A DNA stretch of 64,000 bases from Actinomycetota bacterium (GTDB lineage: Bacteria > Actinomycetota > Aquicultoria > Aquicultorales > Aquicultoraceae). Positions 16,529 through 64,000 of the stretch are shown here, one piece after another (the first letter of the stretch is position 1; the number at the start of each line of letters is the position of its first letter). The DNA is taken from the NCBI GenBank assembly GCA_018333515.1, contig JAGXSZ010000031.1, positions 17,654 through 81,653 of the forward strand, given 5' to 3'. A program made the translations under genes and the position numbers. A model generated the notes under the pieces. That model was not told the DNA's origin, made no database searches, and saw only the letters and a program-made list of their open reading frames with translations.

Positions 16529-16732
16529 CCCCAACTTCTCACAGTACGGCGCGGACACCGCTCTTATCGTCGTCTAAATTCTATCGCTACTTAGTAGTTT
16601 CCATAAGAATGACCAGATAAAACTTGCCCGGTAACAGCTTGCATCAAGGATTTTGCGGGGCGTCTTTGGGGATTTATCGTTGATTATTGTGGGTAGATTT
16701 TTGTTGGGCTTATCGCCTACGGAAGCACAAAG

Positions 16733-16747: not shown

Positions 16748-16759
16748 TTGTTCAAAGTA

Positions 16760-16846
16760 TGGTGCCCGAGGCCGGAGTCGAACCGGCACAACCTAAAGGT
16801 CGGCGGATTTTAAGTCCGCTGCGTCTGCCTATTCCGCCACTCGGGC
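16760..16846 (-). tRNA. tRNA-Leu (anticodon UAA), CCA encoded
   Basis: Minus-strand read: GCCCGAG...GCGGA-CUUAAAA-UCCGC...long variable arm...GCCGG-UUCGACU-CCGGC-CUCGGGC-A-CCA. It has a 7-bp acceptor stem, a 7-nt anticodon loop with UAA at positions 34-36, a canonical T-loop and a class II variable arm. Confidence 0.9.
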
Positions 16847-16964
16847 ATCTCTTCGATTATATAAATCTTACTCATAAAATCCTAGTTAAATATGGATTGT
16901 TTTTCGTTGCGCTAAAACATATCCAAAACATATCAATCCGGTTCTTCTCGGACCGACAAAGGGC

Positions 16965-17897
16965 TTACGAAGTCGACCCGTCGCCAAGCGCGCGAATCAG
17001 GCCATCCAGGATGTCGTGCTCGCTAACGACCATCTCGGCAAAATCAAGTCTCTCAAGCGTCTCGTCGAGGATGAGGGCTCCGGCGATTATGACGTCGGCG
17101 CGCTTGGGGTCCATGCCGGTCAGCGCTTTGCGGGCGTCGAGGTCGAGCGACGCTAGCTGTGCGACCAATGCTTGCAGCTGACCGCGCGTGATTCTCGAGC
17201 CGTGGATTCGCGCCGAGTCGTAGGGCTCAACGCTATATAGAACAGCGGCTAACTGGGTGGCGGTTCCGGCTACGGCCACCAGAGCGTTTGGCTTTGCCGC
17301 GACTATGCGCTCGAAGAGATCGCGCGTCCGTTCCCCTATCATCGCGCGCGCCGCCGCGAACTCGGTATCGGTCGGTGGGTCGGATTTGAAAAAGAGTTCC
17401 GTAAGGCGGACCGCGCCGATATCGATGCTGACCGCATCGAGAACACCGCCGCCGGCCCCCCGGATATACTCGGTGCTCCCGCCGCCTACATCGACGACGA
17501 GGGTCATGCCGCCGGGCGCGACGGCCGACTCCGACGCGGCGCCCGCGAAGGTGAGCCTCCCCTCTTCTTCTCCTGAGATGACCTCGATTTGGAGCCCGAG
17601 CCGGCGCTCGACCATGGCGATAAAATCGTCCGCGTTGCGGGCGTCGCGCATCGCGCTCGTCGACACCGCGCGCACCTTGCGCACGCCGTGTTTGAGCATT
17701 AAATCCCGGTAGCCCTCGAGTATGGCAACCGTGCGCTCCATCGCCCGCGGGTTTATCTCCCGGCTCTGCTCGACCCCTTCGCCGAGTCGCGCTATCTCGA
17801 CTTCGCGCACGACATCGAGCCATTTGCCGTCGGCGCCCTCCTCGGCGATTAGAAGCCGCACCGTATTGGTACCGATATCGATGACCGCCGCTTTCAT
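16965..17897 (-). CDS. ppx: Ppx/GppA-family phosphatase (exopolyphosphatase)
   Basis: 310 aa with AVIDIGTNTVRLLI and DVGGGSTE, the actin-like ATPase motifs of Ppx/GppA. It overlaps the upstream DUF501 gene by 4 nt. Confidence 0.85.
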   Translation of the reverse strand: MKAAVIDIGTNTVRLLIAEEGADGKWLDVVREVEIARLGEGVEQSREINPRAMERTVAILEGYRDLMLKHGVRKVRAVSTSAMRDARNADDFIAMVERRLGLQIEVISGEEEGRLTFAGAASESAVAPGGMTLVVDVGGGSTEYIRGAGGGVLDAVSIDIGAVRLTELFFKSDPPTDTEFAAARAMIGERTRDLFERIVAAKPNALVAVAGTATQLAAVLYSVEPYDSARIHGSRITRGQLQALVAQLASLDLDARKALTGMDPKRADVIIAGALILDETLERLDFAEMVVSEHDILDGLIRALGDGSTS

Positions 17898-18421
17898 TTG
17901 CCGTCACAGCGCGCGTCGCACGCCCCGGCTCCGAGATTCTCCGCCACCAGCTTGCCGACGGGATTAGACCCGGACACGAGATAGTGCGCGAAGTGCGCGT
18001 GAAGGCACTTGATGGCGTCGAGGTCTCGCACGCCGCCGATGCCCTTGTCGTATACGGGATGGGCCGTATCGCGTACGCCGCACTTGCGGGCCTCTCCGTA
18101 CTCCCGTTGGGCCTGGTTGAGATGGGCCCGTAACTCCGTATCGCGGGAGAGCCTGTCGATAAACCCGGCCGCCCAGCCGCTAGCTTCAAGTCGCGCTACG
18201 GCCTTGACTTTCATCGGACAAGTAAGCCAATAAAGGGTTGGAAAGGGCGTTCCATCGCTCAAAAACGGTTCCGTTTCGACAACTTCGGGACAACCGAAAT
18301 CACAGCGAGCAGCCACGCGCCTTAGTCGGCGAGGCTTGCGCTTGATTTGCGTCTCGATGATTACTCTATCATCCTCGGCTATCTTCTCTTTCACATCCTC
18401 CATTAAACAACAAAAAAACAT
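17894..18421 (-). CDS. DUF501-family protein
   Basis: 175 aa with RCDFGCPEVVETEP...PFPTLYWLTCP, characteristic of the DUF501 proteins found between ftsB and ppx in Actinobacteria. The exact start is uncertain (alternative ATG at 18403). Confidence 0.7.
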   Translation of the reverse strand: MFFCCLMEDVKEKIAEDDRVIIETQIKRKPRRLRRVAARCDFGCPEVVETEPFLSDGTPFPTLYWLTCPMKVKAVARLEASGWAAGFIDRLSRDTELRAHLNQAQREYGEARKCGVRDTAHPVYDKGIGGVRDLDAIKCLHAHFAHYLVSGSNPVGKLVAENLGAGACDARCDGK

Positions 18422-47403: not shown

Positions 47404-49851
47404 TTAAATCGAGGCTGTGAGCTGCGGCGCCTTGAACCTGCGCAGCCTCAACGAATTCGATACCACCGAGACCGAGCTTAAAGCCATCGCCGCGGCCGCA
47501 TACATCGGATTTAGGCTAATCCCGAAGAACGGGTAGAGAACACCGGCCGCCACGGGTATCAGCATTATATTATAGAAGAACGCCCAGAACAGGTTCTGGT
47601 AGATGGTCTTGAGCGTTTTCCGGCTGAGCGCGATCGAGGTCACCAGGCCTTGGAGGTCGCCGCTGATCAGCGTGATATCGGATGCTTCGATTGCGACGTC
47701 GGTGCCGGTACCTATCGCGATACCGATGTTCGCCTGCGCGAGCGCCGGCGCGTCGTTGATGCCGTCGCCCACCATAGCAACGACCCGCCCCTCATCCTGG
47801 AGACGCTTTATCTGACGAGCTTTGTCGGCCGGGAGCACCTCCGCGAAGACGCGGGCGATGCCGACTTGGCTCGCGATAGCCTTGGCTGTCCGCTCATTGT
47901 CGCCGGTTATCATAATTACTTCGAGCCCCATGTCCTTAAGTCGCCCAACGGCGGCCTTCGAGTTCCCCTTTAAAACGTCGGCGACGGCGACTATGCCGAC
48001 CGCCTCCGTGTCGACCGAGATATACATGGGCGTCTTGCCCTCGGTGGAAAGCGTCGCGGCGACCCCGTCCAAGTCGTTGAGCGCGATATCGCGCTCGTCC
48101 ATTAGGCGGGCGTTGCCCAACATCACACGGCGCCCGTCGATGGTAGCGCCGATGCCTCGGCCGGTGAACGACTCGAAATCTTGCGGCTCTCCCAGGGTGA
48201 GCGCTCGTTCTTTGGCGCGGGCGACTATCGCTTCACCGAGCGGGTGTTCGGAACCGCGCTCCGCGGATGCGGCAAACCGTAAAATATCTTCGTCGCTAAA
48301 GCCGACCGCCGCGACAATATCGGTTAAGACCGGTTTGCCCTGCGTCAAAGTGCCTGTTTTATCCAGAACGATAGCGTTTATCTTGTGCGCGTTCTCAAGC
48401 GCCTGCGCGTCACGGATAAGGATGCCGTTCTGCGCGCCCTGGCCGGTGCCGACCATGATGGCCGTCGGCGTGGCCAGCCCCAGCGCGCACGGGCAAGCTA
48501 TAATCAACACGGCGACAAAGTTTAGTAAAGCTAACGTAAAGGCCGGTTTCGGGCCAAAGACGTACCAGACGACAAACGTCAGCACCGCGATAGTAATGAC
48601 CGTCGGCACAAAATAACTCGCTACGATGTCGGCGAGACGCTGGATGGGGGCTTTGGAGCCCTGCGCTTCCTCGACGAGTTTTACTATTTGCGCCAAGGCG
48701 GTCTCGCTGCCGACTTTGGTCGCCTTGAATTTGAATGCCCCGGTCCTGTTTATGGTCGCGCCTATCACCTCATCGCCGGCGCGCTTTTCGACCGGGATAC
48801 TCTCACCGGTTATCATCGACTCGTCTATCGACGAATAGCCGTCGACCACGATACCGTCGACCGGGATTTTCTCTCCGGGTCGAACCAGCACGATATCGCC
48901 GGCGACGATTGCGTCGATGGCTATATCGACCTCCCGGCCATCCCGGACTACGCGGCCGGTTTTCGCCTGGAGCCCGAGGAGTTTCTTTATAGCGTCCGAA
49001 GCCCTTCCCTTTGCTCTTGCCTCAAGATAGCGTCCGAAGAGGATGAGGGTGATAATCGTTGTGGAGGTATCGAAGTAGACCGCGGGCATGATCCCCTGGG
49101 CCTCGAAAAGCCCGGGGGTAAACGTTACCGCGACACTGTAGAGGTACGCGGCGGTCGTTCCGACCGCGACAAGCGTGTTCATGTCGGTGGCGCCGTGTTT
49201 GGCCGTAAGGTACGCCCCGCGGTAGAAACGCCGGCCCGCCCAGAACTGTACCGGAGTTGCCAGAGCTAAAAGTATCAAAAATCTCGTTTTGTCCGGGACC
49301 ATCATCAGCGCGGGGATAAGGTCGTGCATGCTGCCTATCATCACTATAACGGTGAGCGCCGCTGCGATGGTCAAGCGAGGCTTTATCTCTTCGGCTTCAC
49401 TCCGCGGCTTAAGCGCCTCCGCCGCGTCGTCCGTCTCCCGCACCTCATAGCCCGCATCGATTATCGCCTTCCTGAGTTGCCGCGGGGTCGCGACCGACGG
49501 AATATACGCGACGGTTCCCTTTTCGGTAGCCAGGTTGACATTGGCGGACAATACTCCCTCTACCGCGAGGAGCGCTTGCTCCACGCGGCGCACGCACGAA
49601 GCGCACGTCATCAAACCGATGGGGATGGCCGTCTCTTCGGCTTCGACTTCATAGCCCGCTTCTTTGATTGCCGCCAAAAGGTCGCCGACCGAGACTTTGT
49701 CCTTATCGATCTCGACAGTCGCCTTCCGGCTCGCCAGGCTGACGTTTACACCTATTACACCGTCTACTTTCCGGAGCGCCGTTTCCACGCGGCGCACGCA
49801 CGACGCTCAGGTCATGCCCGTGACGGGAAGAATCACTTTTATCGTCTCCAC
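47404..49851 (-). CDS. copA: Cu(I)-exporting P1B-type ATPase with two N-terminal HMA domains. The first HMA CxxC has an in-frame TGA in place of the first Cys.
   Basis: CPC (IIACPCALG), [13 protein letters not shown] and TGES motifs. The second HMA domain has GLMTCASC. The ORF track starts at 49797 (GTG), but the frame continues upstream to GTG 49851 (RBS AAGGTGA) with a single TGA at 49807-49809, reading [25 protein letters not shown]. Confidence 0.85.
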
Positions 49852-49860
49852 GACTTCACC

Positions 49861-49886
49861 TTCTATTCTTATCTTCTATTCTTATC
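49861..49886. repeat. Perfect 13-nt tandem duplication in the copA 5' leader
   Basis: TTCTATTCTTATC occurs twice back to back (49861-49873 and 49874-49886), immediately upstream of the copA RBS on the minus strand. Confidence 0.9.
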
Positions 49887-49944
49887 TAAGATAGAGCGTG
49901 TTTCTACGCGCCGAATCGATATTCCTCTTATGATACGCATCCAA

Positions 49945-49964
49945 TCGATGAGAGCGCTCATCGA
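49945..49964. promoter_or_regulatory. 8-bp-arm palindrome in the copA/csoR intergenic region (candidate operator)
   Basis: TCGATGAG-AGCG-CTCATCGA, followed by an A9 run on the plus strand. The run position relative to the hairpin is wrong for an intrinsic terminator on either strand. Confidence 0.35.
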
Positions 49965-49977
49965 AAAAAAACCGGCG

Positions 49978-50002
49978 ACATATACCCTTGCCCCCTATAT
50001 GT
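49978..50002. promoter_or_regulatory. 7-bp inverted repeat flanking C-tracts (candidate metal-regulator operator upstream of copA)
   Basis: ACATATA-CCCTTGCCCCC-TATATGT. The AT-rich arms with a C-rich core resemble CsoR-type sites, but the core is not a C-tract/G-tract dyad. Confidence 0.35.
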
Positions 50003-50073
50003 ACAAAGTTATCATTTGCGAACTTGCCAAGTCAAATCGTCAGCCATATAGCGAGGTGGATTTATATGGATTG

Positions 50074-50102
50074 TTGACACTTTCACAACATCCTAAGATA
50101 AT
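50074..50102 (+). promoter_or_regulatory. Candidate sigma-70-type promoter of csoR
   Basis: TTGACA (50074-50079), 17 nt, GATAAT (50097-50102), followed by AGGGGTATAC overlapping the predicted transcription start. RBS GAGGTGGAG precedes the ATG at 50144. Confidence 0.6.
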
Positions 50103-50143
50103 AGGGGTATACGTATCTAGGCGAGGTCGAATGAGGTGGAGAA

Positions 50144-50419
50144 ATGACTTCATATACAGCCGACAAAGAAAAGATTTTATCAAGACTTAAGCGTATTGAG
50201 GGGCAACTCCGCGGTATCCAGCGGATGGTAAACGACGAAAAGTATTGCGTCGACATTCTGGTCCAGATATCGTCGGTTCTCGGCGCGACTCAGCGAGTAG
50301 GACTAATCATCCTTGACGACCACATCAAAGGCTGTGTGCGAGAGGCCATGTCGAGCGAGGACGAAGACTCGGCCATACAGGAACTGATGGATGTAATCCA
50401 GCGTTTTGTAAAGACCTAA
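50144..50419 (+). CDS. csoR: CsoR-family copper-sensing transcriptional repressor
   Basis: 91 aa with RLKRIEGQLRGIQRMV....YC.DIL.Q and H..GC, the C-H-C Cu(I) ligand pattern of CsoR/RcnR. It is divergent from copA. Confidence 0.9.
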   Translation: MTSYTADKEKILSRLKRIEGQLRGIQRMVNDEKYCVDILVQISSVLGATQRVGLIILDDHIKGCVREAMSSEDEDSAIQELMDVIQRFVKT

Positions 50420-50498
50420 CCGCTTCGGCACCCTCGTCAACTCTACCGAACGGCCGGCAGCGGGCCGGTCTCTATACCACATGGGCGCCGATTGTGAG

Positions 50499-51230
50499 CT
50501 AAACTGCGTCGCGGTCGCCTGTGCCGACTCCGCTTGGAGCGCGCAACACCGCCCCGGTCGCCGCGTCACTCACTATGACACCATCTCTCAACTCTATCAA
50601 ACGACCGGTATCGCGAATCGAGTCGGGATTGTGCGTGACCATTATTATGGTTTGGCCGTCCGCGTGCAAGGCTTGAAAGAGGTCGAGAATCTCGGAACCG
50701 GTCTTGCTGTCGAGACTGCCCGTCGGCTCGTCGGCGAGGAGCATAGGCGGGTCGTTTACGATAGCGCGCGCGATGGCGACACGGCTTTGCTCGCCTCCGG
50801 AAAGCTCCGACGGCAACCGTCTTGCTTTGTCCCCGAGGCCGACTTTTTCGAGCATCCGAGCCGCCCGCCCTTTCTTGTCCTTGACGTCGGACACGACCAA
50901 CGGCAGCATCACGTTTTCGAGCGCCGTAAGATACGGTATGAGCTGTGGCTGCTGAAAGACGAATCCCAAGTATTCGCGCCTGAAATCGGCCCGTTTCTCC
51001 TGCGATAGCGCGTAGACGTCGATACCGTCGACGAGGAGCGCGCCCTCACTCGGCGGGTTCATCGCACCCAAGATCGCCAGCAACGTGCTCTTTCCGCTCC
51101 CCGATGGGCCCATGACCGCGATATACTCGCCCGGCTCGATTGTAAAATCGACGTGCCGCAACGCATGGACTCTCGTCTCCTCATCGTTCCCATAATACTT
51201 GCAGACCCCGTTCGCTATCACCAGCGACAT
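50499..51230 (-). CDS. ABC transporter ATP-binding protein (MacB/LolD/FtsE-like)
   Basis: Walker [10 protein letters not shown], signature [14 protein letters not shown] and Walker [13 protein letters not shown]. Confidence 0.9.
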
Positions 51231-51261
51231 TAATAAAACCTCCTATGAAAGAAATCTACCC

Positions 51262-52419
51262 CTAAAGACTTTTGAGCGCGTCGGACGGATCCATGTTCGC
51301 CGCGCGGCGCGCCGGCATCGCGCTCGAGACGAGTCCGACGAAGACCGCTATCGCGAGCGCCAATAAAAAGACCGACGAACCGGCCTCGACCCGCAGTTCG
51401 ATACCTCGCACGAACCGCGGCAACGCGTATGTGGCGCCGAAACCGACAATATAGCCGACAATACCGCCGACAACGCTGACCGCCAGCGCCTCGGTTAGAA
51501 TTATCCGGGCAACGCTCGACTTCCGGTACCCCATCGCCCGAAATACGCCTATCTCTTGCTTGCGTTCGTTTACCGATGAGGTCATCGTCACAAAGACTAT
51601 AAACCCGCTTATCATTATGATAATCGCCGTCACCATCAACCCGAATCTGACGAGTGAGCCCATCGCCTCTTCCCGATATTTGACCGCCTGCTTGATTGAG
51701 GAGACCTCGGCACCCGGAAGCGCCTTCTCCAACTCGGCCACGACGGTGTCGATTTGGTCGCTTCGCCGCGCCGATATTTCAATGAGGCTCAACTCTTGAC
51801 CGCGGCCAAAGAGCGACTGCGCCAATTCGATATCGCTAAAGACCAGGCCGTCATCTTGGCTTCCGGTCTCATGTAAAATACCCGCCACCTTAAAGGTCTG
51901 TGAGCCGATTTTCACCGAATCGCCCACTTTTAGGCGGAGGCTCTTTGCGGCATCCGAACCGAGAATGACCTGGTCTTTCGACGAAGGTTTGTGCCCCGTG
52001 ACCTTCCACCACTTCTTAACCTGAAACTCCTCGTCGAAATCGACCCCGACAAGGAGCGCCTTCTTATTCTTGACCTCGATCGCCTGTAAGACCTTGGGCG
52101 ATATGGCCATAATATGATCCGCACTCCGAATCCGGCGCGCTTTCCCGAGGTCCGCTTCGGTCAAGGTTTCGACCTCGAACGTGTCGACGCCCGAGATATT
52201 CATGCCGCCGTAATTTAGCGAGAGGCTCGAAGAGGCGGGGTAAACCACGATATTGAAGCCGTACGCGTCGAGCTGGGTGTCGATGCTCTTTTCGAAAGCG
52301 AGCATCAAGGTGACGATAGAGACCATCGTCGCGATACCGACGGCCAACCCGACGACGACCAGCGTCGCCTTCCCTTTTCGTCGCGCGAGATTCTTAAAAG
52401 CAATCGTATGTAATCTCAT
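51262..52419 (-). CDS. FtsX/MacB-type ABC transporter permease
   Basis: 385 aa. It has TM1, a large extracytoplasmic domain, then three C-terminal TMs with the FtsX-family motif (EIGVFRAMGY). Confidence 0.85.
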   Translation of the reverse strand: MRLHTIAFKNLARRKGKATLVVVGLAVGIATMVSIVTLMLAFEKSIDTQLDAYGFNIVVYPASSSLSLNYGGMNISGVDTFEVETLTEADLGKARRIRSADHIMAISPKVLQAIEVKNKKALLVGVDFDEEFQVKKWWKVTGHKPSSKDQVILGSDAAKSLRLKVGDSVKIGSQTFKVAGILHETGSQDDGLVFSDIELAQSLFGRGQELSLIEISARRSDQIDTVVAELEKALPGAEVSSIKQAVKYREEAMGSLVRFGLMVTAIIIMISGFIVFVTMTSSVNERKQEIGVFRAMGYRKSSVARIILTEALAVSVVGGIVGYIVGFGATYALPRFVRGIELRVEAGSSVFLLALAIAVFVGLVSSAMPARRAANMDPSDALKSL

Positions 52420-52428
52420 CAGAACATC

Positions 52429-53601
52429 CTATGTTATAGAGTTTAACGCCTCGGACGGGTCGAGGCGGGCGGCGACTGTCGCCGGATACACGCCTGCCAA
52501 CAACGATAGAACGACTACGCCGCCGATGGCAATAGCCGGGACGATAGGGTCGAAGACGACACCGACGTCCATACCGGTGGCGATCGGCGCGATATAGCCC
52601 GACGCCGAAAAACCGGCGAGATACCCGCCGACTCCGGCGACCAGTCCGACTATGGCCGATTCTAAGAGCACTATGAGGGCGATGTGAGACCGGCGGTAGC
52701 CGACCGCGCGAAAGACCCCTATTTCCCGGCGCCGCTCCCGAACCGCGCTCAACGTGTTCGTAAAGACTACGAGCGCGGCAACGATACCCATCGTCACCGA
52801 GAGTATCAGGCTGAAGAGGCTGAATTGGCCGATGACGGCATCGCGCGTCTCGGCGGCTTGGCGCACCGCCGCGACTTTGGCTCCCGGCAATTTCTCCCTT
52901 ACCTGCTCGACTATGTCATCAATGGGACAATCTTTGCACCACGCCGAGACCTCCGCGAAGCTGACCTCGCCCGGCCGCTCAAGGATAGCCTGGGCCTGCT
53001 TCATGCCTATAAATATTAGTTCGTCTTCTTCCGTGCCGACCTGTCCGAGTACACCGGCGACCCGAAACTCTTCGCCGGAGATGTTTAAGCTATCCCCGGC
53101 GCCTGCCCCGAGTCTGCGCGCCGCTTTACCGCCGAGTAAGATCTCGCGGTCGTTGGCGGGACGAACGCCCTGCTTTATCTCCCACCACTTCTTAAGATCG
53201 AACTCATCTTTGAAGCGAACCCCGGCGAGCATCGTCTTCGACCCGTTTACCTCGACTATGCCGAGGAGTTTCGGCGAGACGACCTTTACGTTGGCGCTCT
53301 CCTCTATGGTGCGGATCTTTTCGAGGTCTTTCTCGGTGAGCGAGTGCGAGCCGTACTGCAAGCCGCCGACGGTCACACCCGCGTATGTGAGGGGCAAGCT
53401 CTCGCTCTTGGGCGTAATGACCATATTCGCTCCGTACTCGTCGATTTTGTCCTGCAGGTCCATATGCATGGCTCTGGAGACCGTGTATAATCCGACGATG
53501 ACCGCTACGCCGACCGCGAGCCCGGCCACCAAAAGCGCGACCTTCGCGGGGTGCGTCTTTATATTCTTCCACGTTATGTGGTAGAGCCTCACAAAATTCA
53601 C
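52429..53601 (-). CDS. FtsX/MacB-type ABC transporter permease (paralogue of the downstream gene)
   Basis: 390 aa with the same topology and EIGVFRAVGY. Confidence 0.85.
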   Translation of the reverse strand: MNFVRLYHITWKNIKTHPAKVALLVAGLAVGVAVIVGLYTVSRAMHMDLQDKIDEYGANMVITPKSESLPLTYAGVTVGGLQYGSHSLTEKDLEKIRTIEESANVKVVSPKLLGIVEVNGSKTMLAGVRFKDEFDLKKWWEIKQGVRPANDREILLGGKAARRLGAGAGDSLNISGEEFRVAGVLGQVGTEEDELIFIGMKQAQAILERPGEVSFAEVSAWCKDCPIDDIVEQVREKLPGAKVAAVRQAAETRDAVIGQFSLFSLILSVTMGIVAALVVFTNTLSAVRERRREIGVFRAVGYRRSHIALIVLLESAIVGLVAGVGGYLAGFSASGYIAPIATGMDVGVVFDPIVPAIAIGGVVVLSLLAGVYPATVAARLDPSEALNSIT

Positions 53602-53691
53602 CTTTACATTAACTCTTAATCTTTATCTTAAACACTCATCGTTGACGCCGGGGTTTTGAGCCCCACGCCCCGTTTATTGCCCGCTTGCAAC

Positions 53692-53757
53692 GCGCCCCTC
53701 GGGCGGGCGCACCACAAGTGCTTCCGATAGCGCGAGCGCGCGCCCCTCGGGCGGGCG
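53692..53757. repeat. Two copies of an 18-nt GC-rich hairpin-forming direct repeat
   Basis: GCGCCCCTCGGGCGGGCG at 53692-53709 and 53740-53757. Each contains CGCCC-CTC-GGGCG. They lie between the Cys-rich protein gene and the first permease gene. Confidence 0.85.
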
Positions 53758-53761
53758 ACGA

Positions 53762-54247
53762 TTACTTAGGACGCACTGGAAACAACGTCTCTGAGAACTC
53801 GCCGTTTCTAAAAGAAAGTTCGGTGACTGCTTTGCCGTCCTTCTTAATCGTAATCTCGTAATGACATCCTAAGCTTTCGGCCTCGGCGGTGACCTCACGG
53901 TCGCCCGTTCTCTCGGCATAGTAATCCATAGCGGCCTTCTCTATCGCGGCAAGCTCCGTCGAGGCGGCCTGCGAACCGCCGGGGGCAACCTGTGCGGCCG
54001 AAGAACCGCAACTATCGCCACAGCTACCGCCGCCGCAAGAGCCCGGTTCGAACGCGGCTGCCTGGTTCGAAGCAACCGATTTTATGACATTGTTGAACAC
54101 GAGAAAGAGCGCGACAACCGCGACCCAAATCACCACATACTTGAGGGCCCGGCTCTTGGTGTCTTGCCTGGGGCTCACCTCGTCCGCTTCGCTCTTTGCC
54201 TCTTCGATCCTGCTCTCGTCCATAGGGGCCTCCTTACGCGTTGGCAT
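53762..54247 (-). CDS. Membrane-anchored protein with SCG-repeat Cys cluster and small C-terminal domain (function unknown)
   Basis: One TM segment (YVVIWVAVVALFLVF) and the extracytoplasmic run GSCGGGSCGDSCGSS, then a ~70-aa domain. The start could be MDESR at 54223. Confidence 0.6.
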   Translation of the reverse strand: MPTRKEAPMDESRIEEAKSEADEVSPRQDTKSRALKYVVIWVAVVALFLVFNNVIKSVASNQAAAFEPGSCGGGSCGDSCGSSAAQVAPGGSQAASTELAAIEKAAMDYYAERTGDREVTAEAESLGCHYEITIKKDGKAVTELSFRNGEFSETLFPVRPK

Positions 54248-54310
54248 ACATAAACTCCGCTAATTCCATCGTCACTTTTTTATGCCGTAAGACCGATTCG
54301 CGATAGACTA

Positions 54311-54985
54311 TTATTCATCGCCGACCGGCCTGTCGAGCGGCTGCGGCTCCCAGTCGGCCAGGTCGGCCTCGGCCAGCTCGATGTTTTTACCGACAAGTTC
54401 GTGCGCAATCGCATCGGCCGGATATAGCTTACATGAGCCGGAGATGCCGGCTTCGGTCTCAGGGTCGCGTTTGGTGCCGCAAGCATTACACGTCAGCGTC
54501 CCGTCGGCCTCAAAATGATGATACTTGGCCTGACAAGGCGGGCAATAACTTACTCCGGTAAAGAGTTCGCCCGAGGGCTTGATGTAAGCCATCATCGAGA
54601 TTGATTGGCCGTCCTTCGGCCGAAGATACTCAAAAGATACGATGCGGTCGACGATGACGTCTCCCGCTTTGATTATTACTTTGCCGTCCTTAACCTCGGG
54701 AATAACCGGAACCATGTCTATCCGGCGGTCGTAAACGACCGGCTCGGTCAGTTTCTCCGGTTTAAAATCGGACGGCAAATACCTGCCGATATATTTTGCC
54801 TCGGCGGCTGTCGGTTGCACCGAACCCGGCGTCTTGCCCGAGTTTGCATAGGCGACTATGAAACCCACGATAGCTACAACCGCGACGCTCAGCACGACGT
54901 ATAGAAGCGCCGGTTTCTTATTCTTCGGCTCGACAAAGTGTGCGCGCTTGCCTTTAAGCCTCTCATTAGCGTTCTTCTTATCCAC
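54311..54985 (-). CDS. DUF2318-like membrane-anchored Cys4 (metal/Fe-S-binding) protein
   Basis: N-terminal TM segment, then SYCPPCQ...CNACG...GSC. I recall this as the DUF2318 arrangement seen next to FtsX/ABC genes in iron-uptake loci. Confidence 0.6.
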   Translation of the reverse strand: MDKKNANERLKGKRAHFVEPKNKKPALLYVVLSVAVVAIVGFIVAYANSGKTPGSVQPTAAEAKYIGRYLPSDFKPEKLTEPVVYDRRIDMVPVIPEVKDGKVIIKAGDVIVDRIVSFEYLRPKDGQSISMMAYIKPSGELFTGVSYCPPCQAKYHHFEADGTLTCNACGTKRDPETEAGISGSCKLYPADAIAHELVGKNIELAEADLADWEPQPLDRPVGDE

Positions 54986-55139: not shown

Positions 55140-56111
55140 CTACTTGCAACATCCGTGGTTCTTAGCCACGCAGTCCGGTCCCTTACAGCAACCACCGACC
55201 GCATTTGCGTCTATCGCCGGCTGCGCATATGCAAAGCCCGCAACGATCAGCACAATGGTTGCGCTTGCGACGATGCTCAGCATCAACCCGGAGATAGAGG
55301 GGCGCGCTTTTATCTTCGGGTCGAGAAGACGTTGAACACGGTCTTTAGCCGACGCTCTCCCGGAGAAAAACGTCGCGTACGCCGGCGAGAACGTCACGCC
55401 GCGGGTAACCCTGGCCACAGAGACGATAGCCTCGGCCAGCTCGACCGGTTTTGCGGTAAGCTCGACCGCGAAGTCGTCGGCGGCGTATTCCTTCTCGCGA
55501 ACGAACAGGCCGAGCAAGTAGTGGCTTATCGGGAGAGGCCAGAGAAAATCACGGATGAAGATCGCGGCGAAGATCGCGAGGTTATCGCGACGCCGAACGT
55601 GGCCGATTTCGTGGGCGAGCAGCGCCGTCAGCTCATCATCTCTTAATTTGTCGATAAGCCCTTTAGAGATACATATAGAAGGGGCCAGCAGACCGTGCGT
55701 AAACGCCGCCACAGACTCGTCGTCGGCTATCCGAACCCTCATCTCTTCGGCGTTCAGCCCTAATAGGAGACGCTTAAGACGCGGCGATTCCTCTCCGTTG
55801 CGCTCATAACGCGCCGCCATCCTTCGGGCTGAAGCGAGCACAAGCACAGCTTTTACCAGCGCCGCGCCGAGCGCCACGATAGCCAAACTTACCAAAAGGT
55901 TCCGCGGGCTTCCTATAATTTGAGCGATGGATATATACGCGTCTTTGCATTCTGTCCCGAAACCCGCGCACGTCTCGGCGATACGCTTGACGGCAACGCC
56001 GTTCGCGAGCCACCGGTCGATGTTGTAGCCGATTGCCCCAATAGCCGCAAACCCCAATACGAGAAGGCCGATTATACTGATGCGCGTATTTCGCGAGGGC
56101 GTCTTGGTCAT
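55140..56111 (-). CDS. BlaR1/MecR1-type M56 zinc metalloprotease signal transducer lacking a penicillin-binding domain, with a Cys-rich C-terminal tail
   Basis: HEIGHVRRRD (HExxH), several TM segments and a final TM followed by only ~27 aa (QPAIDANAVGGCCKGPDCVAKNHGCCK). It overlaps the upstream BlaI-like gene by 4 nt. Confidence 0.75.
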   Translation of the reverse strand: MTKTPSRNTRISIIGLLVLGFAAIGAIGYNIDRWLANGVAVKRIAETCAGFGTECKDAYISIAQIIGSPRNLLVSLAIVALGAALVKAVLVLASARRMAARYERNGEESPRLKRLLLGLNAEEMRVRIADDESVAAFTHGLLAPSICISKGLIDKLRDDELTALLAHEIGHVRRRDNLAIFAAIFIRDFLWPLPISHYLLGLFVREKEYAADDFAVELTAKPVELAEAIVSVARVTRGVTFSPAYATFFSGRASAKDRVQRLLDPKIKARPSISGLMLSIVASATIVLIVAGFAYAQPAIDANAVGGCCKGPDCVAKNHGCCK

Positions 56112-56533
56112 TCCTCTATCCGACTTCTCTTCTGCTTAATCAGGCGCTCAAGCTCGTCGAGGGTCGCTGTGTCTTCGGTGATGTTCTCGACAAAAAAACT
56201 TAAAGCTTGCTTTCCGAGGTCTTCATGGAAACCGTTGAATACCGAGGCGAACATGGTCTGGTTGAACTCTTCTTTGCTAAGGAGCGCCCTATAGAGATAT
56301 TGCTTTCCGTTGCGCTCTTGAAATAGGATGTTTTTCTCGGCCAAGCGGCTCATTACCGTCATTACGGTCGTATAAGCTATTTCGCGGTCTCTCTCAAGGA
56401 TACCGTGGATCTCCCTTACGCTTGCCGGGTCTTTCTCCCATACAAGCTCCATTATGTCGGCCTCAAGGTCACCGAGCATCTTTCTCACACCCGACTCGGC
56501 CGGTCGAAAACTTCCCAGCTTGAACCGCTTCAT
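56108..56533 (-). CDS. BlaI/MecI/CopY-family winged-helix repressor
   Basis: 141 aa with E..IM..VW.....SVREI...L......AYTTVMTVMSRL..K. There is no C-terminal CxCxxxxCxC, so it is not a CopY-type direct copper sensor. Confidence 0.85.
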   Translation of the reverse strand: MKRFKLGSFRPAESGVRKMLGDLEADIMELVWEKDPASVREIHGILERDREIAYTTVMTVMSRLAEKNILFQERNGKQYLYRALLSKEEFNQTMFASVFNGFHEDLGKQALSFFVENITEDTATLDELERLIKQKRSRIEE

Positions 56534-56698: not shown

Positions 56699-57421
56699 AT
56701 GGGCGGCAGTCCCGACATTGGAATACTTATAGCGTTTACAGCGGGCATTATATCGTTCTTATCACCCTGTATTTTGCCGCTCATCCCAGGGTACCTCTCC
56801 TTTATATCGGGAATCTCCGTCGACCGCCTCGGCGAATCGAGCGGCCGGGAACGGTTCAAAATCCTATTCGCCACCCTCTTGTTTGTGGCCGGCTTTGCGA
56901 CGATATTCGTCGGTCTGGGCGTATCGGCCGGCCTGGTAGGCGTTTCCTTGACGAACTATCAATCGATTATGACAAAAGTGGCCGGTATCACCATTATCCT
57001 GTTCGCCTTGTTCACAATGGATATCATTAAAATACCGCAGCTCTACAACACCAAGCGTTTTCAATCAAAGACCACGCGCCAACGGAGTCTATGGGGGGCG
57101 CTGCCGCTGGGCATGGCCTTTGGTTTCGCCTGGACACCGTGTGTCGGCCCGGTGCTCGGCTCGATATTCATGGTGGCCGCGACCGGCGACAACGTTAGTC
57201 AGGGAGCGGTACTCTTGAGCGTCTACGCCCTCGGCCTGGGTATTCCGTTTATCGCGACGGCGCTCTTCTTCAACACGGCGCTCAACGCGTTCGGCTGGAT
57301 AAAAAGGAATTATCGCGCGGTAAATATAGTAAGCGGGGTACTACTGCTGGCAATGGGCATTTTAATACTGACCAATAAGATGGCGGCGGTCAACTCGTAT
57401 ATATTGAAACTGACCGGCTAG
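56699..57421 (+). CDS. ccdA: CcdA/DsbD-family thiol-disulfide transporter (cytochrome c maturation)
   Basis: 240 aa with 6 TM segments. The first TM has SPCILPLIPGYL and the fourth has TPCVGPVLG, the two conserved Cys of CcdA. Confidence 0.9.
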   Translation: MGGSPDIGILIAFTAGIISFLSPCILPLIPGYLSFISGISVDRLGESSGRERFKILFATLLFVAGFATIFVGLGVSAGLVGVSLTNYQSIMTKVAGITIILFALFTMDIIKIPQLYNTKRFQSKTTRQRSLWGALPLGMAFGFAWTPCVGPVLGSIFMVAATGDNVSQGAVLLSVYALGLGIPFIATALFFNTALNAFGWIKRNYRAVNIVSGVLLLAMGILILTNKMAAVNSYILKLTG

Positions 57422-57904: not shown

Positions 57905-58777
57905 ATGCCAGACTTAAAAGGGATGTCTTCCAGGACAAAAAAACTTATCTTAACGATAGCCGCTTCCCTCACGGTCTTTTCCATTGCTGTCGTGGTAGCC
58001 GGAACGGCTATGACGAGTCGTCCGCAAACCTGCAGCCTCTGCCACGCAATGCAAGAGCCTGTCAAAGCGTGGCAGGCCTCATCGCATGAAAAAATAACCT
58101 GTATCGAATGCCACCACAAGGAACCCGGCTATTTAGGGTTTGCCGTAGGTATTCCCACCAAGGTCAGTGAGGCTACGAAGCACATCACCGGCGACTATCA
58201 GATCCCGGTTAGAGCGAAGCACGACACCAAGAGTAAGGTCTGCCAAAAATGTCACGTTAGCTGGCGAAACGTATCCCCCGGCGGCGACCTTATCATACCC
58301 CACAATCTCCACTTCGAGAAACGCAAAATCGAATGCGTCGTATGCCACTCCTCGGTCGTCCACGGCGAGGACAGGGATAACGAGATTACGAGGCGTCCGG
58401 CAATGCAGCTCTGCTTGAGTTGCCACGATACCGGCAGAGAGAACGCGCCTATCCTTAAGTGTAAGGATTGCCATACTGAAAAAGGCGTACCGTCGAGCCA
58501 TAACGAAAAAGATTGGTTCGAGATGCACGGGCAGCTCTATAAGGACCCGAATCATCCCGACAGCCAATGCGACGATTGCCATGGTTGGACGCCGACATTC
58601 TGCAGCGACTGCCATAAGAGCAAGCTTCCGACGACCCACTACGGCGGCAGCCAGTGGAAGACATTTCACAGCATTCGCGCCAAAGTCAGAAAGAGCGGTT
58701 GTCTGGTCTGTCATGACGCGAAGACCTTCTGTTATAGGTGTCACGATCCATTTGAAGATGTTGAGAAGGGTAAATAA
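57905..58777 (+). CDS. Membrane-anchored decahaem c-type cytochrome (NapC/NirT-like N-terminus plus paired CxxCH motifs)
   Basis: One N-terminal TM segment (LILTIAASLTVFSIAVVVAG). Ten CxxCH motifs: CSLCH, CIECH, CQKCH, CVVCH, CLSCH, CKDCH, CDDCH, CSDCH, CLVCH, CYRCH. I chose the start MPDLK (57905). The ORF track runs from 57845. Confidence 0.85.
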   Translation: MPDLKGMSSRTKKLILTIAASLTVFSIAVVVAGTAMTSRPQTCSLCHAMQEPVKAWQASSHEKITCIECHHKEPGYLGFAVGIPTKVSEATKHITGDYQIPVRAKHDTKSKVCQKCHVSWRNVSPGGDLIIPHNLHFEKRKIECVVCHSSVVHGEDRDNEITRRPAMQLCLSCHDTGRENAPILKCKDCHTEKGVPSSHNEKDWFEMHGQLYKDPNHPDSQCDDCHGWTPTFCSDCHKSKLPTTHYGGSQWKTFHSIRAKVRKSGCLVCHDAKTFCYRCHDPFEDVEKGK

Positions 58778-58779
58778 AC

Positions 58780-59619
58780 GTGAGCAACGAGGCTAAGGGA
58801 TTGCTGGGTAAAATCAAAGATTTCTACAATAACAACCAACGCAAGGCGAATATCATCATAATCGCGATTGCGGCGTTTGGTGTCTTCACCTATGGAGCGC
58901 TCCAATATACCGGAAGTCCCGGCTTCTGCAAAAGTTGCCATGAGATGAACCCGGCCTTCGATAGCTGGAAAGCCTCGGTCCACTCGGAGGTAACCTGCTA
59001 TTCGTGCCATATGCCGCCGGGCATCGTAAACTTCGCGACCCACAAAGTGATCGCCTTAAAGGAAGTCTACCTTCACTTTACGGTCTACAATAAGCCAAAC
59101 GCGCCGAAGATAGTCGCACGTCAAAAAGAGCCGGTCAATGACGCCTGCGGTAATTGTCACTCCCTCAACAGGGAGATGGCGTTCGGCGGCGGTCTCAACG
59201 TGCCCCATAAGCTCCATATCGAACAAGGACTAAAGTGCACGACTTGTCACGCGAGAGTAGTTCACGGGCTCGGCGACGATAAGGCCCGCAAGCCGAAGAT
59301 GGAAACGTGTATGAAGTGCCACGACGGCAAGAAAGCGCCCGATAAATGCGATGTCTGCCATACCAAGATGGGGACTCCTGAAAGTCATCAGCAGGCGAAC
59401 TGGTTCAAAGTCCATGGTGAGCAATCCAAGACCATTAAATGTAACGAGTGCCATAACTGGAGACCCGACTGGTGTATGGATTGCCATACCAAGAAACCCG
59501 AATCGCACGCCGTGCGCTGGAGGTCGAACCATGGCTCGGCGGCGAAAGCTGCTCGGGACGGCTGCAACGCTTGCCACACGCTCGACTTCTGCATGCGCTG
59601 TCATGGTGTCCAACCTTAA
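58780..59619 (+). CDS. Membrane-anchored decahaem c-type cytochrome, collinear paralogue of the upstream gene
   Basis: GTG start 2 nt after the upstream stop and a TM segment (IIIIAIAAFGVFTYGAL). Ten CxxCH motifs: CKSCH, CYSCH, CGNCH, CTTCH, CMKCH, CDVCH, CNECH, CMDCH, CNACH, CMRCH, with the same spacing pattern as the previous protein. Confidence 0.85.
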   Translation: MSNEAKGLLGKIKDFYNNNQRKANIIIIAIAAFGVFTYGALQYTGSPGFCKSCHEMNPAFDSWKASVHSEVTCYSCHMPPGIVNFATHKVIALKEVYLHFTVYNKPNAPKIVARQKEPVNDACGNCHSLNREMAFGGGLNVPHKLHIEQGLKCTTCHARVVHGLGDDKARKPKMETCMKCHDGKKAPDKCDVCHTKMGTPESHQQANWFKVHGEQSKTIKCNECHNWRPDWCMDCHTKKPESHAVRWRSNHGSAAKAARDGCNACHTLDFCMRCHGVQP

Positions 59620-59852
59620 TAAGCGAGTATGCCGCTAAAGACTAGACGGTAAATCTAAACGCCGGGCGAGCACCGGTATTATCTGCAAGATTCTCGATAT
59701 CTCAACTCCCGAACATGTTGGGCTCATTAATCCGCAATTCGACCTTGCCGAGGTTTGACTCAGAGCTCTCCGGCGCTTACGCAAAACAAAAGATACTCGC
59801 GGCTGTTGTAAAATCCCTCTCTTAATCCTAAGATTGAGACAGGAGGCCGAAG

Positions 59853-61400
59853 ATGAACTGCGATGATGCCAGGCGTTCGCTCGCCGACTACACTGACGAC
59901 CAACTAAGTGAAGATATTCGCCGCGACGTCGAGGAGCATCTCACAACATGCGGCGAATGCGCTGCTATACCGGCTAAGTTACGCGAACTTCCCCAGTCGT
60001 TGCGAGACATCCCTCCTCTTCTCGTCCCGGAATCCATATATCAGCAGCTAGCCGACAAAGCGGCCGGGACGTTTAAAGCTACAGCGGGTAGACGCAAAAT
60101 CGCGCCCCGAGGCCTGGAACGGTTTGCGCGCTCGGCTACACTTGGCGTCGCCGCTATCTTCATAGCCGTGACTCTTGCCGCCTTCACCTTCGCCCTCATG
60201 TTCGATCAGGGGTTCGCAATACTGGATATCTTCAACATCAGTGACCTCGCGCCCGAACCGGGACAGAGTGCCGCTGAGAGGACCCTGAACCAGAGCTTTG
60301 AAGACCTCGTGTTAAAAGCAGAGAGCGGTGGCCCCAGAGCCTATGATTACCTCCCGCGCCCGGAAATCTTAGTGTCGGGAAAACACTACGCTGAGGATGC
60401 CTTGGAACAGGTCGCGATCCAGCCCATAATCGTCGCTTTTTCTCAGGAATACCGGACCGTCGAAGCAAAGCTCTACCGAGCCAACATCATATCTGAGATT
60501 ACAGCTCAAGCGGCTATCCTTGGTCTGGAGAAGCGCGTTTTGGGTCGGTGTATGGAGACCATTCTTGCGACGACAAACGACCTCGCCCTCCCCTCTTACG
60601 TCGAAAAAGCCTTCTTGAACGAAAAAGAGGTCTTGTTTATCGTCGTCAACCGCACCGATGCGAAAAGCGGTAAACTGCTCACCGGAATCTCGGTCTTCGC
60701 GTTCGACCCTGCAACCGCATCCATTGTGGCGACCTGGCCGCAGACTCCATTGAGCCAGGCGGTCGAGTTGCGTGACATTAATCCGCACAAATCGCTTGCC
60801 TGCATCGCATGCCACCCTAACTTTGAGGGTTCGACAAAAGATCTCGAGGACGCAGGCTGGAAAGAGGTCGCCAAGCGTACCTGCTCGCAATGCCACAGCC
60901 ACAAAAAGCAGCACGAAATTTATGCTAAGAGCATCCACGGGCAATTGGCGCTCAGCAAAAGAACCGGTAAAGGGGGCGTGCCGGCGCCGGCTTGCGGCGA
61001 CTGCCACGATGCGCACGCGACGCTGGCATCGAACAAGAAACCGCAAACCCTTGCCGAGATGAGAACTCACGCCAAAAATATTTGCGGCGACTGCCATAAA
61101 GACTATTGGGAATCGTACAACGATTATTACCACGGTAAAGCATATAAAGCGGCCGCCCCCGACGCACCGGCATGTTGGGACTGCCACGGAAACCACGACA
61201 TTCAACCTTCGCGCAATCCGAAATCGCGAGTATCCGGAAAAAACTTGCCGAAAACTTGTAGTGCCTGCCATGCGGAAGCTGAGCTAAAGTTCGTCAAATA
61301 TGGAAAAATGGTGCATGGTATGAAAGCGGAGCAAGACAAAAGTCCGGTTTGGCGGCAATTCGACAGCGGGCTCGAAGCGTTGAAAGGACTTCTGAGATGA
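59853..61400 (+). CDS. Zinc-anti-sigma (zf-HC2)-like N-terminal domain - TM - extracytoplasmic domain - C-terminal hexahaem cytochrome c domain
   Basis: N-terminus MNCDDARRSL...EEHLTTCGEC (C...H-x3-C-x2-C) and a TM segment LGVAAIFIAVTLAAFTFALMF. Six CxxCH motifs lie in the last ~190 aa (CIACH, CSQCH, CGDCH, CGDCH, CWDCH, CSACH). RBS AGGAGG. Confidence 0.8.
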   Translation: MNCDDARRSLADYTDDQLSEDIRRDVEEHLTTCGECAAIPAKLRELPQSLRDIPPLLVPESIYQQLADKAAGTFKATAGRRKIAPRGLERFARSATLGVAAIFIAVTLAAFTFALMFDQGFAILDIFNISDLAPEPGQSAAERTLNQSFEDLVLKAESGGPRAYDYLPRPEILVSGKHYAEDALEQVAIQPIIVAFSQEYRTVEAKLYRANIISEITAQAAILGLEKRVLGRCMETILATTNDLALPSYVEKAFLNEKEVLFIVVNRTDAKSGKLLTGISVFAFDPATASIVATWPQTPLSQAVELRDINPHKSLACIACHPNFEGSTKDLEDAGWKEVAKRTCSQCHSHKKQHEIYAKSIHGQLALSKRTGKGGVPAPACGDCHDAHATLASNKKPQTLAEMRTHAKNICGDCHKDYWESYNDYYHGKAYKAAAPDAPACWDCHGNHDIQPSRNPKSRVSGKNLPKTCSACHAEAELKFVKYGKMVHGMKAEQDKSPVWRQFDSGLEALKGLLR

Positions 61401-61463: not shown

Positions 61464-62360
61464 ATGAAGTGCGGTAAGGCATTGCGCTTACTCCCCTTTT
61501 ATTATGATGGGATTTTAAGACAGGAGCGCGCTGAAGAGGTCTCCTCACATATTCGCGCGTGCCCATCGTGCTCGGCTGAACTCCTTAAGATAGAACGGTT
61601 ATCACAGGCGCTCTATTCGCTATCCGATGTAGAGCTACCGCGCTCGCTAGCGGAAGAACTCGAGTCGACTCTGCGCAAACGCAATATCCATCGGCTTTCG
61701 ACAAAAGCAAGGCGCTACTCCATAGAGAAGCGCGCTTCCCTACTGCGCGCGGCTCTAAGCTTAGGATACGCGGCACTCGTCGCCGCAAGCGTTTTAGCTA
61801 TAACCAAATCAGGTGTCTGGCAGAACCGGCAAGCGCCATCGGCAGGCGCCCCAGGCGCCCTTGAAAATCAGAATTCGCGACCACCCGTAAAACTTAAGCA
61901 GCCGCTCAAAGAGAAACGTGCGGAGCCGGGAGTGGAGAGCCTCGAGCGCTTTAAGGGAGGCATAGGGCTTTCGCTCCAACCCGAAGTGGCAATCTCAAAG
62001 CAGGACTACACGGTAGAAGATGTGGATGATGTGAAGTTCACGTCGGTCGTTCTAAGCTTTGCCGACCGATATACCGCGGAAGATGCGGTAGCTTTGCGCG
62101 GTAAAATGGTAAGTGGTATCATCGACGCCGCTGGACAGGCCGGCCAAGATATAGGCTCGACCTCGCGGGCACTGTCGACCGCGCTCGCCGCCATCGATAA
62201 ACCCGCGCTCCCCGCGTACGCCGAACGCGCTAGCCTTCAGGGGCGCGACGTCTGGCTTTTTGTCCTGGTGTGGAGTCCCGGAGGCTCCACGGGGGCTCTT
62301 TCGAGCGCCTCGGTGGTCGCGGTCGACCCGGCGTCGAACGAGGTCGTGCTCACCAAATAA
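61464..62360 (+). CDS. Zinc-anti-sigma (zf-HC2)-like transmembrane protein, haem-less paralogue of the upstream gene
   Basis: MKCGKALRLL...SHIRACPSC (H-x3-C-x2-C) and a TM segment LLRAALSLGYAALVAASVLAI. The extracytoplasmic part aligns with the middle of the upstream protein (ALPAYAERASL..VWLFVLV / ALPSYVEKAFL..VLFIVV; VVAVDPASNEVV / VFAFDPATASIV). The ORF-track start at 61404 is an alternative. Confidence 0.7.
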   Translation: MKCGKALRLLPFYYDGILRQERAEEVSSHIRACPSCSAELLKIERLSQALYSLSDVELPRSLAEELESTLRKRNIHRLSTKARRYSIEKRASLLRAALSLGYAALVAASVLAITKSGVWQNRQAPSAGAPGALENQNSRPPVKLKQPLKEKRAEPGVESLERFKGGIGLSLQPEVAISKQDYTVEDVDDVKFTSVVLSFADRYTAEDAVALRGKMVSGIIDAAGQAGQDIGSTSRALSTALAAIDKPALPAYAERASLQGRDVWLFVLVWSPGGSTGALSSASVVAVDPASNEVVLTK

Positions 62361-63634: not shown

Positions 63635-64000
63635 ATGCCGGATACGGTGGAAGAGCCACAGAAAACATCGGGCGGAAAAACGGGAAAATTCAAGCGTGGG
63701 TATTTTTTGGCGATTGCCGTTGCCCTTCTGGCGCTCTTTCTAGCCATCCCCTATGCCTATACGTCCGACCCCAAGAGCTGCACCCTCTGCCACAGTATGG
63801 ACAAATACTATGAATCGTGGCAAAAATCGACACATGCAACCGCCGCAAGCAATTGTTTTGAATGCCATGTTAAAGACGGCACTTTGAATATATGGGTCTA
63901 CCGTATTAGCTTCTATCGTGAAATATACGCGAGCATAGTCGGCGCCGAACTCAAACCGGCCGGCGCCACCGTGCCCGGTGTGGATTCATGTCAGAAACAA
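63635..64000 (+). CDS. NapC/NirT-like membrane-anchored multihaem cytochrome, 3'-truncated by the window end
   Basis: Not in the ORF track because no stop is reached. My own translation is MPDTVEEPQKTSGGKTGKFKRGYFLAIAVALLALFLAIPYAYTSDPKSCTLCHSMDKYYESWQKSTHATAASNCFECHVKDG... It has the same TM-CxxCH-W..S.H-CxxCH start as the two decahaem proteins. Confidence 0.75.
   Translation, partial: MPDTVEEPQKTSGGKTGKFKRGYFLAIAVALLALFLAIPYAYTSDPKSCTLCHSMDKYYESWQKSTHATAASNCFECHVKDGTLNIWVYRISFYREIYASIVGAELKPAGATVPGVDSCQKQ

Follow-up and report, generated by a model that had tools for sequence, protein, structure and literature searches.

Anti-sigma factors are known with many kinds of sensor domain, and none that carries a multihaem cytochrome was found in the literature searched. 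Covalently bound haem outside the membrane does serve signaling in Desulfovibrio DcrA and in Geobacter GSU0582 and GSU0935, sensors in which a single extracytoplasmic c-type haem in a PAS-like fold is coupled to a chemoreceptor or kinase output. Multihaem c-type domains also occur fused to other membrane modules, as in Geobacter CbcL, where such a domain, with bis-His haems, is joined to a PF01292-type b domain (PMC9129911). How the state of an extracytoplasmic electron-transfer chain is sensed is poorly understood, especially in Gram-positive organisms. Here we describe a gene in a 64,000-nucleotide stretch of actinobacterial DNA (the window; contig JAGXSZ010000031.1) whose product joins a cytoplasmic domain of the zinc-anti-sigma (ZAS) type to an extracytoplasmic module with six c-type haem sites, and which lies beside a haem-less short paralogue in a cluster of multihaem cytochromes. 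We propose, with a probability of roughly 0.45, that this protein and its paralogue form an anti-sigma-like signaling pair that spans the membrane, with the haems on the long partner, and that the pair is dedicated to the cytochrome cluster, the sigma factor being encoded elsewhere; the cluster itself probably serves extracellular electron transfer.

A conserved fusion of anti-sigma-like and hexahaem domains

The long gene (59853..61400, + strand) begins with ATG and encodes 515 aa, in agreement with the open reading frame (ORF) quoted by an earlier note made from the DNA letters alone. Its product is deposited as MBS3909756.1, "zf-HC2 domain-containing protein," and public records for the family bear solely that name or "hypothetical protein." Pfam matches and a motif scan support the domain order given in that note (ZAS domain, transmembrane [TM] helix, non-haem region, haems), and we distinguish five parts in sequence: a zf-HC2/ZAS domain, a TM helix, a disordered linker, an alpha/beta ectodomain that we call X, and a C-terminal module with six CxxCH motifs. 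On 9 contigs from ENA, Logan, and JGI assemblies the 515-aa protein is the same without a single difference, and uninterrupted full-length orthologues of 507 to 534 aa, at ∼40 to 79% identity, are present in at least five sub-lineages; their identities fall into groups of 76 to 79% and 40 to 42%, and additional orthologues measure 524 to 534 aa. The architecture is therefore real and conserved, with all of its parts under selection. It is also new and undescribed: the literature searched held no account of a ZAS-multihaem fusion and no relevant paper on Aquicultor cytochromes, in line with the earlier remark that no characterized anti-sigma factor is known to have a multihaem sensor domain. 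A sequence search of the PDB with the whole protein returned chance matches only.

The ZAS-type domain (aa 1 to 80; 59853..60092, +) matches Pfam zf-HC2 (PF13490) over aa 3 to 37 with 30.2 bits against a gathering score of 22.2, so the zinc-binding motif reported earlier at the N terminus stands. Its ligands are C3, H29, C33, and C36 (C3...H29-x3-C33-x2-C36), and the Cys-to-His spacing of 26 residues equals the C11-H37 spacing of RsrA. All four ligands are invariant across 18 long and short members that are otherwise ∼24 to 40% identical, and again across a second set of 10 diverse short forms, every one of which (10/10) matches zf-HC2 (best E value, 1.6e-10). The NCBIfam "anti-sigma factor" model NF052375 aligned to aa 10 to 113, spanning the anti-sigma domain and the TM helix, with an E value of 8e-8, a match that falls short of the cut-off of that family. 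An AlphaFold2 model of the N-terminal part (aa 1 to 310) places helices at aa 3 to 14, 20 to 32, and 34 to 44, with a predicted local distance difference test score (pLDDT) of ∼77 to 86. When the N-terminal domain was compared with the PDB by Foldseek, the sole recurrent match was Mycobacterium tuberculosis RslA in complex with SigL domain 4 (3hug), at a probability of up to 0.87, a TM-score of 0.62, and 30% identity over 50 columns, a short match with E >1. The nearest genomic relatives of the N-terminal 50 residues (43 to 49% identity), from Verrucomicrobiota and Fulvimonas, are classical anti-sigmas encoded directly downstream of extracytoplasmic function (ECF) sigma genes. The invariant ligands, the NF052375 and RslA matches, and these sigma-adjacent relatives together uphold the resemblance to genuine anti-sigma domains. 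One protein with a weaker zf-HC2 match, P0269, was rejected as a family member, as it has only the anti-sigma domain and TM helix in common and is devoid of an X domain. That the zinc site is invariant in both paralogues speaks for an interaction in the cytoplasm that has been conserved, for which sigma binding is the best model.

A single TM helix (aa 95 to 117; 60135..60203, +), identified by hydropathy and placed at aa 88 to 117 in the AlphaFold2 model, follows this domain. There are 7 Lys or Arg residues in the 20 positions before the helix and 0 in the 20 after it, which points to an N-in/C-out topology, as haem attachment requires; the single helix, the internal ZAS domain, and the external haems claimed earlier are all consistent with these data. 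The intervening region, previously read as one non-haem domain of ∼200 aa, is indeed free of haem motifs, but AlphaFold2 divides it into a low-confidence linker and a folded domain. The extracytoplasmic linker of ∼48 aa (aa 118 to 165; 60204..60347, +) has a pLDDT below 50 and is poorly conserved, at 8 to 27% identity to other sub-lineages and to short paralogues. The alpha/beta ectodomain X of ∼130 aa (aa 166 to 297; 60348..60743, +) is modeled at a pLDDT of 80 to 90 and is shared with the short paralogue; it matches no Pfam family and no PDB fold (Foldseek E >0.6) and is specific to this family.

The hexahaem c-type module and a C-terminal helix occupy the remainder (aa 298 to 515; 60744..61397, +). 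All six CxxCH motifs claimed earlier were located, starting at aa 317, 344, 381, 411, 441, and 469, and the Pfam families Cytochrome_C7 and Paired_CXXCH_1 both match aa 380 to 445 above their gathering scores. In an alignment of 47 homologues the six motifs are invariant together with His 312, 362, 388, 427, 448, and 488. Two of these, H388 and H448, are the "nearby" His residues that had been pointed out before, and the other four extend that observation. Six invariant His residues for six CxxCH motifs predict six bis-His haems, with H312, H362, H388, H427, H448, and H488 as candidate distal ligands.

The haem module is built of a repeated dihaem unit. Its closest relatives are heptahaem cytochromes of ∼327 aa with a plain N-terminal TM anchor (43 to 47% identity), whose haems 2 to 7 align one to one with the six haems here, and the module derives from such a membrane-anchored heptahaem cytochrome. 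The same dihaem unit occurs three times in proteins of ∼716 aa in which a multihaem c domain is joined to a b-type cytochrome (PF01292) and to which the module is 39% identical over 146 aa. AlphaFold2 modeled the haem part at a pLDDT of 82.9, and Foldseek found no PDB neighbor for it, which is unsurprising for a loop-rich fold modeled without its haems. The PF03264 (NapC/NirT) match that both upstream neighbors give is absent from the long protein.

A haem-less paralogue accompanies the long protein

Directly downstream lies a gene for a 298-aa paralogue without haems (61464..62360, +), which possesses an intact ZAS motif of its own along with a TM helix and an X domain and is 24% identical to aa 1 to 297 of the long protein (E value, 8e-17). 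A GGAGAGG ribosome-binding site (RBS) 10 nucleotides upstream and a start reading Met-Lys-Cys favor 61464 as the first position, and a longer ORF call from 61404 is probably wrong. In every locus that carries the long form, the short gene follows it directly. The clade of the window has one long-short pair, and Candidatus Aquicultor secundus has two in tandem (L005, 2664 to 7710; L035, 8378 to 13480). In Candidatus A. secundus the haem module of the first long copy is more diverged, at 44% versus 60% identity to the window protein. In two loci (L040 and L044) the stop codon of the long gene overlaps the start codon of the short gene as ATGA. Loci of two lineages (L043 and L045) have the short form only, placed directly after decahaem genes inside the cytochrome operon. 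Within this conserved set of multihaem-cytochrome genes, the short form is the constant member.

Long and short forms make up separate clades, which indicates that the duplication predates the split of the sub-lineages and that both copies have been kept since. The long protein had been pictured earlier as a transmembrane sensor. It is not a lone one, as it is always paired with its haem-less paralogue, and it is this paralogue that makes up the conserved core of the cluster. This tight pairing and the placement of both genes, in every case, inside the cytochrome cluster tie the function of the pair to the cytochromes.

The earlier note had raised the question of how widespread the fusion is, and the family proved to be tiny. 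An exhaustive HMMER search of 1.84 billion representatives at 50% identity gave 3 to 4 long-type and ∼9 short-type clusters among the matches listed; the profile included haem columns and most of the 150 listed matches are plain cytochromes, with the full-length and short-type matches still informative. Among GTDB species representatives only two carry the full-length fusion, and a short-paralogue query matched four loci in JGI metagenomes. All members with a taxon-specific name belong to Candidatus Aquicultor (A. primus, A. secundus, and A. sp.; Actinomycetota), an uncultured, monoderm actinobacterium of groundwater.

The multihaem-cytochrome cluster

The cluster has a conserved gene order. 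A BlaR1-like and a BlaI-like gene on the minus strand are followed on the plus strand by ccdA, two NapC/NirT-like decahaem cytochromes, and the ZAS pair or pairs; then come, usually, a convergent PF01292 cytochrome b, two to three pentahaem NapC/NirT-like cytochromes, a dodecahaem cytochrome, and TPR, NHL, or Wzy_C proteins. In the window the plus-strand cluster opens with a CcdA/DsbD_TM thiol-reductant transporter of cytochrome c biogenesis (56699..57421, +), and the two membrane-anchored decahaem cytochromes, each with 10 CxxCH motifs, lie at 57905..58777 (+) and 58780..59619 (+), just upstream of the long gene. Beyond the pair is the b-type cytochrome (Ni_hydr_CYTB/PF01292; 62416..63288, −), which adjoins the pair in most loci, and then the first of several pentahaem NapC/NirT-like cytochromes, of which only the start is present (63635..64000, +) before the gene runs past the window end. 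Divergent from ccdA are the BlaI-like repressor (56108-56533, −) and a BlaR1-like M56/M48 sensor protease (55140-56111, −) with a Cys-rich tail, ...GGCCKGPDCVAKNHGCCK; this pair adjoins the cluster in every locus that reaches that far.

Taken with locus L001 (13783-17025), the region is unusually rich in such cytochromes and encodes two decahaem, three pentahaem, and one dodecahaem cytochrome, which are membrane anchored and NapC/NirT-like. The NapC/NirT-like series is followed by TPR, NHL, and Germane-domain proteins and by another large cytochrome. The region as a whole has the look of a genomic island for extracellular electron transfer, here in a monoderm member of the actinobacteria.

A proposed anti-sigma-like signaling pair and the missing sigma factor

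We hypothesize that the X domains of the long and short proteins pair with each other or dock on neighboring cytochromes, and that the hexahaem module would equilibrate electronically with the cytochrome b and the NapC/NirT-type cytochromes. The redox, occupancy, or folding state of the module could then alter the ectodomain, and this change might act through conformation or might, as in RsiW, open the disordered linker to cleavage by site-1 and site-2 proteases. A partner in the cytoplasm would then be freed from the ZAS domains; this partner is most likely a sigma factor of the ECF type whose gene lies elsewhere in the genome. Besides the zinc site and the topology, we count in favor of such a pair the disordered juxtamembrane linker in the AlphaFold2 model, the ATGA overlap, and the presence of the short form within the cytochrome operon of lineages that have no long form. 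A redox-sensing anti-sigma mechanism is plausible. Of the earlier proposal of a redox sensor with a sigma output, the domains and topology fit, but no sigma partner gene was found in any locus, and a structural or respiratory role is equally supported.

Several observations weigh against the signaling pair, the first being the sigma factor itself. The search for ECF genes used three ECF sequences and the sigma of L030, both with phmmer and as a four-sequence hidden Markov model (HMM), and covered the window and the family loci L001-L013 and L034-L046. Neither the 64-kb window nor the 10 kb beyond yielded an ECF sigma gene, and ∼134 kb from 12 distinct family loci likewise gave none; the co-occurring sigma that the earlier note had suggested looking for did not turn up in these stretches. 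The search was able to find such genes: in a positive control the HMM recovered the sigma beside 4/4 classical relatives (L030-L033; E values from 1e-41 to 1e-83), and it also found an unrelated ECF sigma (E value, 1.6e-17). No sigma-70-family gene was seen among the genes of the window, and an overlapping gene pair at 16965-18421 that resembled a sigma/anti-sigma pair is Ppx-GppA plus DUF501. Given that the sequence features of a ZAS domain are present and an adjacent sigma gene is absent, we call the protein anti-sigma-like rather than an anti-sigma factor.

The promoters point in the same direction. Good sigma-70-like promoters lie upstream of cluster genes, among them a perfect TTGACA-N17-TATAAT before the first decahaem gene, and a shared ECF-type promoter motif, sought upstream of the cluster genes, was not found, the best sites being sigma-70-like; the latter counts weakly. 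Upstream of the long gene a block of ∼70 bp (59780..59852, +) contains TTGTAA-N17-TAAGAT (59806-59834) and a GGAGG RBS and is conserved in three species, in which it is nearly identical while the proteins are only ∼76 to 79% identical. Within this block an imperfect palindrome, TCTCTTAATCCTAAGATTGAGA, overlaps the −10 element and is a possible operator. The BlaI/BlaR1-like pair could regulate the cluster, or else the metal-homeostasis genes next to it. In addition, the fourth helix of the anti-sigma fold (aa 60 to 78) was modeled at low confidence only (pLDDT <50). Finally, the haem module is the most conserved part of the protein, at 83 to 88% identity versus 50 to 76% for the cytoplasmic part, and has kept all of its ligands and every feature of an electron-transfer cytochrome, a pattern no less suited to an electron carrier than to a sensor.

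Alternative explanations

The strongest competitor is that the long protein works as a subunit for structure or electron transfer, without a regulatory function, forming with the cytochrome b and the NapC/NirT-type cytochromes a split, CbcL-like conduit from menaquinol to the exterior; the X domains would build the complex, and the ZAS domains would have been exapted for dimerization, assembly, or stability without a sigma partner. We regard this as a serious possibility, somewhat less probable than the signaling pair. The absence of a sigma gene from every family locus and the homology of the haem module to the c-type part of the ∼716-aa fusions and, most closely, to the anchored heptahaem cytochromes speak for it, as do the PF01292 cytochrome b conserved beside the pair, the invariance of all CxxCH motifs and distal His residues in the best-conserved part of the protein, and the ATGA coupling of the two genes, which suggests a stoichiometric complex. 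Against this, ordinary anchored cytochromes of the same family need a TM helix only, whereas here a cytoplasmic domain of 90 aa with an invariant zinc site has been retained in two paralogues over a long divergence, which implies a cytoplasmic binding function, and the short form is without any redox cofactor. The adjacent cytochrome b also fits the conduit imperfectly: it lies on the opposite strand, shows no specific similarity to the fused b domains (E value, 0.012), and is absent after the pair in L040. A Rosetta-stone link between the hexahaem module and this cytochrome b was rejected, as it exists at the level of domain families only and is not specific.

A bolder form of the signaling pair would make the hexahaem module a working member of the respiratory chain whose redox poise gates the release of an unlinked sigma factor through the TM helix and ZAS domain, with the haem-less paralogue as reference or partner. 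We consider this combination unlikely. If true, the protein would mark two firsts, an anti-sigma factor that reads electron flux in a chain for extracellular electron transfer and, among monoderm actinobacteria, a regulator of a chain of this kind.

Less probable still is a device for cytochrome biogenesis or quality control working with CcdA, in which the long form would be a reporter substrate whose mis-maturation leads to its own degradation. The CcdA/DsbD_TM gene that starts the cluster, the faint CcmH/CycH-type TPR matches of the cluster TPR proteins, the short form beginning 25 nucleotides after a decahaem gene in L045, and the disordered, protease-accessible linker are all compatible with it. 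Yet the X domain has no thioredoxin-, CcsBA/ResBC-, or haem-lyase-like feature by Pfam or PDB matching, the case is purely contextual, and a cytoplasmic output partner would still be required. An assembly chimera or frameshift fusing an anti-sigma gene with a cytochrome gene, for which no supporting point was found, can be dismissed with near certainty given the same ORF in independent assemblies and the intact orthologues.

Either outcome for the ZAS domain would be informative. If it binds a sigma factor, the pair would be a compact, portable redox-to-transcription switch and would offer a way into how an uncultured subsurface lineage regulates extracellular electron transfer. If it binds none, the pair would show clearly that a respiratory complex can recruit an anti-sigma domain, and would warn against naming all zf-HC2 proteins anti-sigma factors.

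Other features of the window

A metal-homeostasis block (47404-54985, −; 50144-50419, +) is syntenic with the cytochrome cluster in other Aquicultor lineages and includes a copper-type P-type ATPase with two HMA domains, a CsoR-like repressor (Trns_repr_metal), a MacB/FtsX ABC exporter, and an FtrD-like membrane protein. Partner-switching components lie at 3875-4354 (−) and 13343-16558 (−), namely, an RsbW-like anti-sigma serine kinase (HATPase_c_2) and a 1,071-aa phosphatase of PAS - 4xGAF - SpoIIE (PP2C) architecture; no sigma or STAS gene was seen among the window ORFs scanned. The rest of the window also holds housekeeping genes and a tRNA-Leu(TAA) gene (16760-16846, −), which is overlapped by a 140-aa ORF (16759-17181, +) that we reject as spurious.

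Comparison with known systems

The long protein shares with membrane-bound (class I) ZAS anti-sigmas such as RslA of M. tuberculosis, RsiW of Bacillus subtilis, and ChrR of Rhodobacter sphaeroides, and with the soluble RsrA of Streptomyces coelicolor, a cytoplasmic helical domain with the C...HxxxCxxC arrangement, and with the membrane-bound members a single TM helix followed by a variable extracytoplasmic domain. It differs from them in having no adjacent sigma gene in any locus, in an ectodomain made of an alpha/beta domain and six c-type haems, and in its occurrence as a long-short paralogue pair inside a cytochrome cluster.

Among cytochromes, the closest in sequence are the anchored heptahaem proteins (P0009-P0012, from Aquicultorales, Chloroflexota, and Coriobacteriia), whose own short N-terminal TM anchor and first CLVCH haem are replaced here by the ZAS - TM - X arrangement while the remaining haems align. 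The CbcL-like ∼716-aa fusions of c and PF01292 domains share the repeated dihaem module (C..CH ... Y..S.HG ... C.DCHG.H; 33 to 39% identity to P0034), and here, too, a PF01292 cytochrome b is encoded next door. The differences are that c and b are encoded here by two genes of opposite orientation, that the neighboring cytochrome b has no specific relationship to the b domains of the fusions, and that the haems number six instead of nine, alongside added anti-sigma-like and X domains. With CbcL itself (PMC9129911) the long protein has the predicted bis-His haems in common, and the fusions have the CbcL type of architecture, the comparison being one of architecture and not of CbcL sequence; the long protein is not of the CbcL type. 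The long protein is also distinct from NapC/NirT quinol dehydrogenases in having no PF03264 tetrahaem NNT domain. With DcrA, GSU0582, and GSU0935 it shares a concept, that of covalent haem outside the membrane reporting to a cytoplasmic signaling domain; in place of their single haem and their chemoreceptor or kinase outputs, it has a six-haem, wire-type module and an output domain of the anti-sigma type.

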